Made by a program: the position numbers and the translations under genes. The notes beneath the pieces were generated by a model that was not told the origin of the DNA, searched no databases, and was given only the letters and a program-made list of their open reading frames with translations. A stretch of DNA of 64,000 nt from a virus. Its lineage: Duplodnaviria; Caudoviricetes. The stretch lies in the IMG/VR virus record IMGVR_UViG_3300050034_000334; one strand, 5' to 3'. Of this stretch, positions 40,694 to 56,641 are shown in pieces. How positions within the stretch are numbered: position 1 is the first letter of the stretch; each line of letters opens with the position of its first letter.

Positions 40694-40770
40694 TGGTGAT
40701 CCCGGAGGGAGTTGAACCCCCAACCTTATGGTTCGTAGCCATACGCGCTATCCAGTTGCGCCACGGGACC
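40694..40770 (-). tRNA. tRNA-Arg (ACG)
   Basis: Cloverleaf, loop CTACGAA, CCA. Confidence 0.95.
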
Positions 40771-40789: not shown

Positions 40790-40825
40790 AAAAACCAAAT
40801 CCCGCCAGCTTGTGGGCTTGGCGGG
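40790..40825 (-). terminator. Intrinsic terminator of the attenuator for tRNA array A
   Basis: CCCGCCAAGC-ccacaa-GCTGGCGGG followed by ATTTGGTTTTT. Confidence 0.75.
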
Positions 40826-40852
40826 TGGAAACTCTGAAAATACCAGGTAGGA

Positions 40853-40948
40853 TTACGCACTACCTCCAGAATCCAGACCGCCGATGGCATGCTGATTTCG
40901 CTGCCACTGCTTATGCTGTCTCATCGAATTGGTCTGTATCTGTTTCAC
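40853..40948 (-). CDS. 31 aa leader peptide of tRNA array A (MKQIQTNSMRQHKQWQRNQHAIGGLDSGGSA)
   Basis: AAGGGAG SD, GTG start; 17 of codons 2-20 cognate to downstream tRNAs. Confidence 0.75.
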   Translation of the reverse strand: MKQIQTNSMRQHKQWQRNQHAIGGLDSGGSA

Positions 40949-53716: not shown

Positions 53717-53889
53717 CACTCCGCAACGGCTCCTGGACCAACCGAACCGACCCGATGTACGACCACTCCCACGAGTACCGTTCATCCACTGTACCGCGTC
53801 GTTACGTTAACGGAACCACCATTTTCTGCGCTATTATTCTAGTTGTGTGGGGAATCGTAATCATTTTCAAGCACTAAAAAAGGAGAAAT

Positions 53890-54144
53890 ATGGCAAACGA
53901 ATTAACGATTATCAACCCAATGACCATCGGCAAGGAACTTCAGAAGTACGAAGTTCAAATGGAAAAGGCTTTGCCGCTTCATATGTCAGCGGCAAGAATG
54001 GCGAGAATTGCGCTTACATCCTTGCGTGTTAACCCAAAGTTGTGTGGCTGCACACGAGAATCATTTTTTGGTTCCTTGATGGCTGCTTCGCAAAGTCATC
54101 AGAGGGCCGTCAGGCATTGGCGGAGGGAATCAGATTTGAACTGA
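53890..54144 (+). pseudogene. recT: RecT recombinase N-terminal fragment
   Basis: MEKALPLHMSAARMARIALTSLRVNPKL..CTRESFFGSLMAASQ, truncated at ~54092. Confidence 0.8.
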
Positions 54145-54205
54145 TGGAACCTTTCGGTTCGGCACGTTAGCAGTGTGCTGGATTAAACCGCTCTCCCATC
54201 CCTCC
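54118..54205 (-). tRNA. tRNA-Ser (GCT)
   Basis: Long variable arm, loop CTGCTAA, G73, CCA. Confidence 0.95.
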
Positions 54206-54216
54206 GTTGTAAACTT

Positions 54217-54299
54217 TGGTGCCCAGAAAGGGGATCGAACCCTCACGATTTCTCAACGGTTTTTAAGACCGCAGCGTCTGCCAGTTTCGCCATCCGGGC
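54217..54299 (-). tRNA. tRNA-Leu (TAA)
   Basis: Loop CTTAAAA, A73, CCA. Confidence 0.95.
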
Positions 54300-54647
54300 A
54301 CGAACCTTACCTGTGTTTCTTCCACAAAATGTGAGAAGTTGACTGTCGCAGTTGGGACAAACCTTTCTCATGTTCTCCCGACGGCAATCTCGCTTTCTCC
54401 CATTGATGTGGTCAATTCTCATTACCAGAACTTGACCGTTCCACATTCCTGTCAAGCCACAGATCGTACAAACTTCTGGAAGTTCTTCTCTGAATCGATC
54501 TTTGGCTGCTTGTAGATGTTCAGAGTTGTCTACAAACACCACAGAGTCTAATAACTTGAGTCTGTGAGATGTCGTGCCAGGTTTCCAAGGTTTTCCACCT
54601 GGCACTCTTCTGGAATCAAATCCATTGCTAAATGGCTTTCCACTCAT
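54243..54647 (-). CDS. HNH homing endonuclease whose 3' end runs into tRNA-Leu(TAA)
   Basis: CTICG..IDHINGRKRD.RRENMRKVCPNCD. Confidence 0.85.
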   Translation of the reverse strand: MSGKPFSNGFDSRRVPGGKPWKPGTTSHRLKLLDSVVFVDNSEHLQAAKDRFREELPEVCTICGLTGMWNGQVLVMRIDHINGRKRDCRRENMRKVCPNCDSQLLTFCGRNTGKVRARMAKLADAAVLKTVEKS

Positions 54648-54667
54648 GCTTCTTAGAATACTGCCAT

Positions 54668-54877
54668 CTAGGCTTCAACCTCACAAGTTGTTCCACCACC
54701 AGGGCATGCCGGGAGGAGGCACTCTGCCCCTTGTTTTACGAGGTGAATTGCCCCGTTCCCCAGTCTTGCCGATTTGAAAACTAATACTCGAGCCATGTTC
54801 TGACAATGGCTGCACAAAATCGGGTGCTCCAAATGAGCGTGGTCTACAGGAAACTTCACTAGATTGGCCATTCTCAT
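54668..54877 (-). CDS. Small hypothetical protein (CxxC)
   Basis: ORF with GAGGAG RBS. Confidence 0.45.
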   Translation of the reverse strand: MRMANLVKFPVDHAHLEHPILCSHCQNMARVLVFKSARLGNGAIHLVKQGAECLLPACPGGGTTCEVEA

Positions 54878-54976
54878 TCTCCTCAGTGATTATGGTTCGG
54901 ACAGTAATCATGTCCAAACCCTACTCTTTGTTGAACTGCATGAAAGGTCAAAGTAGCTCTCTGCAGCTTAATCTTT

Positions 54977-55061
54977 TGGTGCCGATGGCCGGGATCGAAC
55001 CGGCACGCCCGAAGACACTGGCTTTTGAGACCAGCGCGTCTTCCAATTCCGCCACATCGGC
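54977..55061 (-). tRNA. tRNA-Leu (CAA)
   Basis: Loop CTCAAAA, CCA. Confidence 0.95.
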
Positions 55062-55075
55062 ACATTTCAAACCTT

Positions 55076-55160
55076 TGGTGCCCGATAAGAGACTCGAACT
55101 CTCACGCCTTGCGACAACAGATCCTAAGTCTGCCGCGTCTGCCAATTCCGCCAACCGGGC
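55076..55160 (-). tRNA. tRNA-Leu (TAG)
   Basis: Loop CTTAGGA, CCA. Confidence 0.95.
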
Positions 55161-55173
55161 ACTTACTAAACTC

Positions 55174-55329
55174 TTGTACGAACGAATGACGAGATGGGAA
55201 ATGCCTTTCGGCTACCGCTGCCTTTGCCAGCTTGGCTACTCCCCGTCATGGTCGGGGAGACAGGACTCGAACCTGTGAAGACTTTCGTCGGCGGTTCCAA
55301 GATAACCCACTACTCTACGGCTCGTACAA
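55174..55329 (-). ncRNA. Circularly permuted class II tRNA-like RNA with internal ACCA
   Basis: 3' half (55295-55249), TGA linker, 5' half (55245-55214); 8 bp terminal stem. Confidence 0.85.
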
Positions 55330-55333
55330 AACT

Positions 55334-55422
55334 TGGTCGGGATGAAGGGAGTCGAACCCTCACGCTACTTGATTTCGCTCGTGGACCTGAACCACGCGTG
55401 TCTGCCATTTCACCACATCCCG
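55334..55422 (-). tRNA. tRNA-Leu (CAG)
   Basis: Loop TTCAGGT, CCA. Confidence 0.95.
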
Positions 55423-55441
55423 AAACTCTACTTCAAAACTT

Positions 55442-55528
55442 TGGTCGGAGCGAAGGGATTCGAACCCTCCCGATGTTGCCACCATGAGCACCTCAAGCTC
55501 ACGCGTCTGCCAGCTTCGCCACGCTCCG
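55442..55528 (-). tRNA. tRNA-Leu (GAG)
   Basis: Loop TTGAGGT, CCA. Confidence 0.95.
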
Positions 55529-55534
55529 ACATCT

Positions 55535-55750
55535 TCAAACTTCTGTTCTCACACTCTTGGGGAGATCCAACCCCCATCCACGTTGAATATTCTCCGAGTC
55601 CGTGGTCATGAACAACTCTTTGACCTTCCATCGGTCACTCGGATCCTTATCAAGATCTACCTCAACACCGGGCCTCAGTCGACGGTCAGCAGGCAGCCAG
55701 GTGATCATGTGGCTAGTTCCCTGTTGGATTAGTGCCTGAATCAGCTTCAC
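55535..55750 (-). CDS. Small hypothetical protein between tRNAs
   Basis: AAGGA RBS, GTG start. Confidence 0.55.
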   Translation of the reverse strand: MKLIQALIQQGTSHMITWLPADRRLRPGVEVDLDKDPSDRWKVKELFMTTDSENIQRGWGLDLPKSVRTEV

Positions 55751-55769
55751 GGTGTTCCTTTCAAATCTT

Positions 55770-55861
55770 TGGTGCAAGCGGAGGGATTTGAACCCCCAAT
55801 GTTAGCTGCTAGAGCGGCAGATTTACAGTCTGCTGCGACCAACCGTATTCGCCTCGCTTGC
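55770..55861 (-). tRNA. tRNA-Tyr (GTA)
   Basis: Loop CTGTAAA, long variable arm, CCA. Confidence 0.95.
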
Positions 55862-55863
55862 AC

Positions 55864-55890
55864 AAACAAAAACCACTCCCGGAGGAGTGG
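55864..55890 (-). terminator. Intrinsic terminator of the attenuator for tRNA array B
   Basis: CCACTCC-tccg-GGAGTGG-TTTTTGTTT ending 2 nt before tRNA-Tyr. Confidence 0.85.
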
Positions 55891-55918
55891 CTCTTGTGAA
55901 CTTGGTTTTGAGGTCGTC

Positions 55919-56011
55919 TTATATGCCTCTCCACCTTGCCACAGAGCCACTCGGCAAGCTAAGGTAATAGCTTGACAGTGACGGGGACGAAGATAGAGAC
56001 AGTAAACGCAT
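55919..56011 (-). CDS. 30 aa leader peptide of tRNA array B (MRLLSLSSSPSLSSYYLSLPSGSVARWRGI)
   Basis: GAGG SD 9 nt upstream; 16 of codons 3-19 are Leu/Ser/Tyr. Confidence 0.8.
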   Translation of the reverse strand: MRLLSLSSSPSLSSYYLSLPSGSVARWRGI

Positions 56012-56038
56012 GACGAAATTCCTCACTCTTACATGATA

Positions 56039-56068
56039 CTCTACTGAGCGGAAAAGTAAAGCGGTTAG
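56039..56068 (-). promoter_or_regulatory. Bipartite promoter-like motif CTAACCG-N17-GTAGAG (array B operon)
   Basis: Motif match. Confidence 0.7.
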
Positions 56069-56073
56069 GAAAA

Positions 56074-56316
56074 CTATTTTCCCGTGACGACGGATTTCTC
56101 TTTACGAGTGGCACTATTGGCAATGTCTTCATACTCGAATTCTTGGAGTTTGTGAAGGTTCTTCATCTGAAAACGAACACCCTGGGCTGCCGTGATCTCC
56201 TCATATCCTGTGGGAGTAGCTTCACCACGATAGATCTGGAGGAGAGGTCCTCCCTCAACAGGAAAAGCAATCAGGGGGAAATCTCTCATGTAGGCAGTTA
56301 GCTGATCGTCTTCCAC
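56074..56316 (-). CDS. Hypothetical protein
   Basis: ORF. Confidence 0.45.
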   Translation of the reverse strand: MEDDQLTAYMRDFPLIAFPVEGGPLLQIYRGEATPTGYEEITAAQGVRFQMKNLHKLQEFEYEDIANSATRKEKSVVTGK

Positions 56317-56320
56317 CAGG

Positions 56321-56641
56321 TTGTCTTCGTTAAATTCTTCACCAGACTCTTCCTCTCATCAAGAGTACCAACACGACGAGATCAAGGTCAAAGGTCGCAA
56401 GTTTCACTCCGACCAGTACCTGGCGACGGTTGAGCATCCCATTCCTCCTGCCGGCGAATATCGTGTGACCCGCACCAGCTATGGCGGCGGCGGAACAGGC
56501 ATGGGTCCCCATGACGTCTTTCCGGACGGTCATCGCGTGTATGCCAAGCCGGTCAATGCCGACGAGCCACTCATCTCATTCTATCAGACCGGCTGCTTCA
56601 CGGCCATGATCGAAAATCCCAAGATTGTTTCAAGAGTCTGA
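56321..56641 (+). CDS. Hypothetical protein
   Basis: GGGTGMGPHDVFPDGHRVYA. Confidence 0.5.
   Translation: MSSLNSSPDSSSHQEYQHDEIKVKGRKFHSDQYLATVEHPIPPAGEYRVTRTSYGGGGTGMGPHDVFPDGHRVYAKPVNADEPLISFYQTGCFTAMIENPKIVSRV

Follow-up and report, generated by a model that had tools for sequence, protein, structure and literature searches.

Leader-peptide attenuation of transcription is known for genes of amino acid biosynthesis and for aminoacyl-tRNA synthetase genes. The leaders of enterobacteria include the multivalent ones of ilvGMEDA and ilvBN, as well as trpL, hisL, leuL, thrL and pheL. The pheST attenuator of E. coli, with its pheM leader, makes the capacity for charging Phe-tRNA respond by feedback to the decoding of Phe codons. 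T-box riboswitches regulate synthetase genes and amino-acid genes; without being translated, they bind uncharged tRNA directly, by means of a specifier codon and the T-box sequence. Clusters of tRNA genes are found in phages such as T4, T5, KVP40-like phages and jumbo phages, including Tunturi 5 (PMC11924767), and published accounts of these clusters cover codon usage, loss of host tRNAs and escape from anticodon nucleases (PMC11924767 among them).

The locus described here is a module of only ~170 nt that stands before an array of Tyr, Leu and Ser tRNA genes in a phage genome. It likely gates the array by ribosome-mediated attenuation of transcription through a leader peptide. The comparative support for this reading is strong; there is no experiment, and translation of the leader, ribosome stalling and conditional read-through are inferred. 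As in the ilv, trp, his, leu, thr and phe attenuators, there is a short leader rich in regulatory codons, a terminator before the genes, an antiterminator overlapped by the ORF, and a 1:2/2:3/3:4 layout of pairings. As in ilv and thr, one leader would sense several amino acids, and the multivalent ilv leaders are especially close. In contrast to the enterobacterial attenuators, the setting is a phage and not a bacterial chromosome, the regulated genes are tRNA genes and not those of biosynthetic enzymes, and the product decodes the leader. The phage leaders also sample up to ten amino acids, and their antiterminator strand lies inside the ORF, with the stop codon 19–31 nt before the terminator arm.

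The resemblance to pheST is that leader-peptide attenuation acts on a component of the translation apparatus, whereas the pheST attenuator controls a synthetase, senses one amino acid and is bacterial. The T-box riboswitches likewise have a terminator/antiterminator leader RNA that reports the state of a specific tRNA, but they do so by direct binding and without translation. Like the known phage clusters, the array is interspersed with a small ORF and a homing endonuclease gene.

In a cmscan search of positions 53800–56400 with E values up to 10, every match was either to tRNA or at chance level. No Rfam leader family (Leu_leader, His_leader, Thr_leader, Trp_leader, Phe_leader or others) and no T-box (RF00230) was matched. 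In the absence of any covariance-model match, the module is analogous and not homologous to the Rfam leader families. No description of leader-peptide control of tRNA genes was found in the full-text literature searched, nor in the Tunturi 5 paper (PMC11924767). As far as that search goes, the class of mechanism is known, and what is new is tRNA genes as the target and the autogenous logic.

Source and anatomy of the leader module

The window, i.e. the whole stretch of 64,000 nt that was analysed, is the minus strand of bases 47308–111307 in a 187,058-bp IMG/VR virus record, whose completeness is estimated at ~60%. Its DNA is found in peat metagenomes. The closest cultured relative found is Tunturiibacter phage Tunturi 5 (PP885688.1), a 309-kb jumbo myovirus with an Acidobacteriota host (PMC11924767); identity is 40% for the clamp loader and 52% for the CCA-adding enzyme. 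The leader region has no match in INPHARED by blastn, and the sole IMG/VR match of the 80-aa and 119-aa proteins encoded upstream is a near-identical 7.7-kb contig. The CCA-adding enzyme of Tunturi 5, used as a query, retrieved no viral loci.

ARAGORN finds 31 tRNA genes in the 187-kb record, in four arrays (record positions 55447, 70538, 153994 and 181579). These genes are grouped by amino acid: Tyr/Leu/Ser, which are the class II tRNAs; Arg/Met/Trp/Gln/His/Asn/Lys; Val/Gly/Asp/Ala/Glu, which have GNN codons; and Pro/Phe.

Table 1. Features of the leader module, its tRNA array and a second module, in positions of the window
Feature	Position	Strand	Remarks
Promoter-like site	56033–56060	−	−35 TTTACT 56060–56055, 16-nt spacer, −10 TATCAT 56038–56033; sigma-70-like; promoter-motif scan
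Inferred transcription start	near 56026	−	~15 nt upstream of the ORF; inferred from the promoter-like site
Shine-Dalgarno GAGG	56021–56024	−	9 nt upstream of ATG
Leader ORF	55919–56011	−	ATG 56011, 30 sense codons, TAA 55921–55919
Regulatory run, codons 3–19	55955–56005	−	16/17 Leu/Ser/Tyr
Region 1 (anti-antiterminator)	55968–55998	−	Pairs with 55929–55961 in free RNA, hiding region 2; MFE helices
Region 2 (antiterminator 5′ strand)	55939–55952	−	GAGTGGCTCTGTGG; within ORF codons 20–25
Region 3 (antiterminator 3′ strand)	55884–55899	−	Terminator 5′ arm CCACTCC 55890–55884 plus upstream flank
Terminator loop, 3′ arm and T-run	55862–55883	−	TCCG 55883–55880; GGAGTGG 55879–55873; TTTTTGTTTGT 55872–55862
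tRNA-Tyr(gta)	55770–55861	−	First gene of the array
Conserved 71-aa ORF	55535–55750		Between tRNA-Tyr and first tRNA-Leu; recurs within arrays of distant relatives
Remaining array	54118–55528	−	Leu(gag), Leu(cag), Leu(tag), Leu(caa), Leu(taa), Ser(gct); 71-aa ORF and HNH gene interspersed
HNH endonuclease gene	54243–54647	−	PHROG 10822, E 6e-21; 3′ end overlaps tRNA-Leu(taa)
RecT-like gene fragment	53890–54144	+	84-aa ORF; PHROG 148, positions 26–84 of a 387-position profile; abuts/overlaps 3′ end of tRNA-Ser(gct)
Second module	40801–40948	−	GTG-started 31-codon leader 40948–40853, run MRQHKQWQRNQH, terminator 40825–40801

The anatomy of the module is shown (Table 1). The initial annotation, made from the sequence alone, had claimed the minus-strand order of promoter, Shine-Dalgarno sequence, 30-codon ORF, terminator and tRNA-Tyr, and all of these elements are present where it placed them. 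Its promoter range, 56068–56039, is right only in part and stops just short of the −10 element. The promoter-like site ends 22 nt from the ATG. The 187-kb record has just four instances of AAAATAGT followed after 23–34 nt by TATYAT, and three of the four precede tRNA-array leaders. A MAFFT alignment of five homologous leaders shows a purine-rich, (A/G)GGAA-like motif ~8–9 nt before the start codon; this is strongest in the studied record (G000), L025 and L010, and degenerate in L009 and in the array A leader of Tunturi 5.

The terminator core hairpin (−12.7 kcal/mol) has a GC-rich stem of 7 bp, or up to 14 bp when the flanks are counted. A consensus terminator scanner did not call the CCACTCC/GGAGTGG hairpin, apparently because the stem runs into the T-run. 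The gap between the stem and tRNA-Tyr is 11 nt, and the T-run abuts the start of tRNA-Tyr (2 nt at most). As the T-run ends right before tRNA-Tyr, the array lacks a separate promoter, and therefore every array transcript must pass the terminator.

The leader region folds with a z-score of −3.99. An antiterminator had been claimed between 55952–55940 and 55898–55885; it is confirmed, and the duplex is taken here as 55952–55939 with 55899–55885 (−23.4 kcal/mol). The CTTGCC/GGCAAG cage of the initial annotation is also present, in a constrained fold. The 1:2/2:3/3:4 layout that it proposed holds for the pairings, and ribosome-masked folding fits this layout in a model-dependent way. The module thus meets the marks of a leader-peptide attenuator, i.e. 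a 5′ ORF with a start codon and ribosome binding site, codons matched to the product, a terminator without a further promoter, and a mutually exclusive antiterminator; for this last mark, the dependence on ribosome position is model-dependent.

The codon content claimed for the run is borne out in full. The run has five different Leu codons, each the Watson–Crick cognate of one of the five downstream Leu anticodons, together with both Tyr codons, and all six Ser codons are represented once codon 21 is counted. It is the single run with at least 16/17 Leu/Ser/Tyr among 212,607 stop-free 17-residue windows in the six frames of the whole 187-kb record. The fraction of Leu/Ser/Tyr is 0.62 in the ORF frame, versus 0.21 and 0.18 in the other two.

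Of the 14 codons for Leu, Ser and Tyr, 13 occur in the leader (P 0.015), and codon diversity over ten leaders is weakly raised (P 0.03). Readability of the leaders by the anticodons of their arrays is not above the expectation from synonymous usage (P 0.13, ten leaders), and therefore matching is established for amino acids and not for single isoacceptors. In the studied leader, 7 of 18 cognate codons have no partner in this record's array, which has no TCN-reading Ser tRNAs. An isoacceptor-level ‘codon sampler’ was considered and is not carried by these diversity and readability values; the claim that specific isoacceptors are sensed is likewise not supported, as it is not separable statistically from amino-acid matching. 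Also rejected was the idea of the leader as a decayed class II tRNA, which was prompted by the GCCGAGTGG motif. Rfam gives no signal there, for a tRNA or anything else, and it is the reading frame that the homologues keep.

The missing Ser tRNAs are found in relatives. In the near-identical contig L002, whose leader is that of the window, Ser(cga) and Ser(tga) follow Ser(gct), and in L012, L013 and L023, which are also nearly identical to the window, the array goes on to Ser(cga), Ser(tga) and Ser(gga). At 54118, precisely the 3′ end of tRNA-Ser(gct), the homology of the window to L002 breaks off. The RecT-like gene fragment found there was matched by PHROGs and not recognized by Pfam. The homology break and the RecT-like fragment together indicate that the array is truncated at a rearrangement and that its TCN-reading Ser tRNAs were lost. 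This bears out the initial annotation, which predicted further Ser tRNAs from the TCN codons and put them as possibly lost at the RecT junction. The leader itself differs in eight near-identical contigs, L012, L013 and L023 among them, by one base, a synonymous change of the first Tyr codon from TAT to TAC.

Matched leaders before other tRNA arrays

Modules consisting of a promoter, a matched mini-ORF and a terminator precede three of the four arrays of this phage. The second module (Table 1) precedes array 2 (Arg, Met, Trp, Gln, His, Asn, Lys; window positions 40770–34831). All six Gln codons of its leader are CAG, and the sole tRNA-Gln of the array is ctg. The leader of array 3 (Val, Gly, Asp, Ala, Glu) takes 19 of 22 residues from that set. 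The leaders of arrays 2 and 3 each rank in the top three of ~200,000 windows. Array 4 (Pro, Phe) has a weak leader candidate, a canonical terminator was not found there, and it is therefore not counted as evidence.

The recurrence extends to other phages. In Tunturi 5 (PP885688.1), all three arrays stand behind a matched leader and a terminator. Its array A (Leu, Cys, Tyr, Ser) has the leader run LCLSSYCLSSSLSLS, the leader of array B (Gln, Gly, Thr, Pro, His, Ala, Phe) is rich in those very residues, and the leader of array C is annotated as a hypothetical protein, gp308. Further metagenomic contigs, L004, L009, L010 and L025, have one matched leader each. L004 carries a mixed array of 16 tRNAs behind a near-consensus promoter and a 28-codon leader, in which 24 of 26 residues come from the array's ten amino acids. 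L009, L010 and L025 were reached via homologues of the 71-aa protein encoded inside the array; these have diverged Tyr-first arrays, each with a Leu/Ser/Tyr leader and a terminator that abuts tRNA-Tyr.

Leaders and arrays covary. In an 8 × 8 matrix of leader-by-array scores, the true pairing outscores every other one of the 40,320 permutations (P ~2.5e-5). Cys codons, for example, are present in the Tunturi 5 leader whose array has a tRNA-Cys and absent from the studied leader, whose array has none. Comparison with related phages had been named in the initial annotation as a check on conserved codon identity and stem covariation. The outcome is favourable: the codon identity of the leader follows the amino acids of the array, and the antiterminator changes with the terminator arm.

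Terminator, antiterminator and transcripts

The covariation between antiterminator and terminator is shown in all ten leaders: the 5′ arm of each terminator has its complement in the last third of the ORF of the same leader. Between homologous leaders the terminator stems have no sequence in common, yet the 3′ strand in the ORF tracks them. Since the stems are out of register in the MAFFT alignment of the five homologous leaders, alignment-free duplex matrices were used and not column-wise counting of pairs. In a 10 × 10 matrix of duplex energies, own pairs total −186.3 kcal/mol, which is equalled by only 4 of 200,000 random permutations (P 2e-5). The geometry is also constant. The distance of 19–31 nt from stop codon to terminator arm holds for 10/10 leaders (28 nt in the studied leader), and the gap between the stem and the first tRNA is 11–30 nt in eight of the ten modules. 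This short gap leaves no space for a promoter, and therefore the arrays are transcribed only through the terminator.

Folding of the studied leader with a 30-nt ribosome footprint masked, and with the RNA ended at the terminator 3′ arm, predicts a switch. The probability of the terminator is 0.93 in free RNA. With the A-site at codons 1–15 the antiterminator duplex forms and the probability is 0.005–0.26, except for codon 6 (0.55); with the A-site at codons 17–28 it is 0.83–0.94. If pairing of the U-run with the A-rich flank upstream is permitted, the MFE structure keeps the terminator even when a ribosome is stalled. Full-length equilibrium folding of seven leaders shows no switch in four (G0_2, T5_1, T5_3 and G1_1). 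It predicts one only for G0_1, which is the studied leader, for G0_3 and partly for T5_2, and inclusion of the U-run removes that of G0_1. When the RNA is cut short before the 3′ arm, all seven leaders form the antiterminator, also without a ribosome, and it is weakened only when a ribosome covers the last ~ten codons of the ORF. The untranslated state is therefore ambiguous. As the folding result is model-dependent and four leaders have no equilibrium switch, the decision is probably kinetic, and the case does not rest on thermodynamics.

Transcripts that cross the terminator are also shown. The stretch is present in four peat/permafrost metatranscriptome runs, and contigs without a mismatch, 55594–56003 in X16 and 55696–55955 in X18, bridge the leader, the terminator and tRNA-Tyr. 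In X16 and X17, coverage starts at 56003–56009, and depth is zero over 56040–56250. It should be kept in mind that this RNA evidence consists of assembled contigs, which report presence only, and that DNA carry-over is not fully excluded. The start of coverage near the promoter and the zero depth upstream fit the predicted promoter start and argue against plain DNA carry-over.

Proposed mechanism, alternatives and neighbouring elements

The mechanism proposed is as follows. Transcription would start ~15 nt upstream of the 30-codon ORF. If charged Leu, Ser or Tyr tRNA is scarce, the ribosome would linger in codons 3–15 and segment 55952–55939 would stay free; this segment would pair with the terminator 5′ arm, and RNA polymerase would read through into the tRNA genes. 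With fast decoding, the ribosome would cover 55952–55939 (codons 17–28) or wait at the stop codon, which is 28 nt upstream of the arm; either way, the terminator hairpin would form and transcription would end. The products of the array are the tRNAs that read the leader, and therefore the circuit would regulate itself, as an autogenous feedback on decoding capacity. Thus, the phage probably makes its Tyr, Leu and Ser tRNAs only when ribosomes read those codons slowly, although this is inferred, without experimental evidence of regulated read-through. The trigger might be an anticodon nuclease or starvation; this was an inference in the initial annotation, which named both as examples, and it stays one.

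If the attenuator reading is true, it explains how phages with 30–40 tRNA genes avoid constitutive tRNA production and why the arrays are sorted into blocks, and the leader becomes a sequence-readable annotation of the tRNAs that its block should supply. It bears on the questions of why phages carry tRNAs, of host tRNA degradation in infection and of anticodon-nuclease defences. The reading is testable now, with modules that are short and with Tunturi 5 and its host, Tunturiibacter psychrotolerans X4BP1, both cultured (PMC11924767). At only ~170 nt, the module is easily moved into reporters or into a defined in vitro translation system.

The alternative that survives best, unlikely as it is, is a constitutive leaky terminator. 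The mini-ORF and hairpin would then only fix how much short transcript is made per tRNA precursor, or would stabilize a 3′ end after RNase P cleavage, without codon-dependent switching. In its favour are the transcript contigs that cross the terminator in environmental samples, the several leaders without an equilibrium switch, and the terminator that is always the MFE structure when the U-run is paired. However, a leaky terminator leaves unexplained the match in composition between leader and array in ten modules. Nor does it account for an ORF 3′ end that keeps its complementarity to a terminator arm while the sequence of that arm changes wholly.

A second alternative is tRNA sensing without translation, whereby the codon run pairs directly with anticodons or uncharged tRNAs in a T-box-like manner and so decides between terminator and antiterminator. 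The leader codons are indeed cognate to the downstream tRNAs, and T-box RNAs show that tRNA-sensing leaders exist. Nevertheless, this is very unlikely. All ten runs are in one frame from start to stop, with the stop codon at a conserved distance from the terminator, and a Shine-Dalgarno-like motif is mostly present (weak in array A of Tunturi 5 and in L009). Conservation across GC-poor and GC-rich phages is in amino acids and not in nucleotides, and there is no T-box or other Rfam match at the locus.

An independent small gene, for a functional peptide or for a structured sRNA that has a terminator of its own, lying upstream by chance and matching the tRNAs by coincidence, can draw on the good fold of the region (z −3.99), on the annotation of the Tunturi 5 homologue of another array's leader as a hypothetical protein, and on the small stable RNAs that the T4 tRNA cluster is known to encode, but it is made very unlikely by the permutation tests (P ~2.5e-5 for leader and array, 2e-5 for the duplex), by a run unique genome-wide, by the lack of promoter space from terminator to tRNA, and by peptides that share only composition, not sequence, from one array to another.

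A bolder form of the attenuator reading is that codon-matched leader attenuators are general in tRNA-rich phages of unrelated lineages. The arrays would then be self-tuning homeostats, on when the matching host tRNAs are depleted, degraded or cut by anticodon-nuclease defences, and off as soon as decoding recovers thanks to the phage tRNAs. Its examples are the jumbo phages of Acidobacteriota, the huge phage of 735 kb and, less surely, phages of Caulobacter and of mycobacteria; they do not quite tip the balance in its favour, and it can only be put forward tentatively. If it were true, the leaders would be built-in sensors of tRNA-targeting immunity. The evidence on generality comes from a quick look at three unrelated tRNA-rich phages. 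The uncultured 735-kb phage (LR756501.1) has a leader (L028:2356–2451) with the run SKHSKHFSSSSKWF before a Trp-His-His-Phe-Lys-Ser array; this leader has a perfect 9-bp antiterminator and a distance of 24 nt from stop codon to arm. The other two are weaker candidates, each with an empirical P of ~0.01. In Caulobacter phage CcrPW (L027:10958–11077), a 39-codon ORF rich in Pro/Lys/Leu/His/Ala/Ser precedes a Pro-Lys-Leu-His-Ala-Ser array. In Mycobacterium phage Phabba (L026:11733–11777), a 14-codon ORF, MFALLSLSSSLRLS, and a hairpin precede a Ser-Leu-Leu-Leu array.

Two further elements were observed near the module. Within the array, between tRNA-Leu(cag) and tRNA-Leu(tag), there is a tRNA-like element on the minus strand (55165–55333) with its parts in permuted order: the T-arm and the acceptor 3′ strand with CCA, a short linker, and then the acceptor 5′ strand and the D-arm. 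The element is closed by a 12-bp helix of its flanks, has a fold z-score of −3.0, and shows weak YrlA and tmRNA-like Rfam matches. ARAGORN made no tRNA call for it; perhaps it is a circularly permuted tRNA gene. Upstream of the module, the segment 56353–56835 has the opposite orientation to that in contigs L002 and L012. An ‘opposite strands’ joint at 56350/56835 is seen in metatranscriptome contigs, and from this joint and the inversion both orientations seem to be present in the population.
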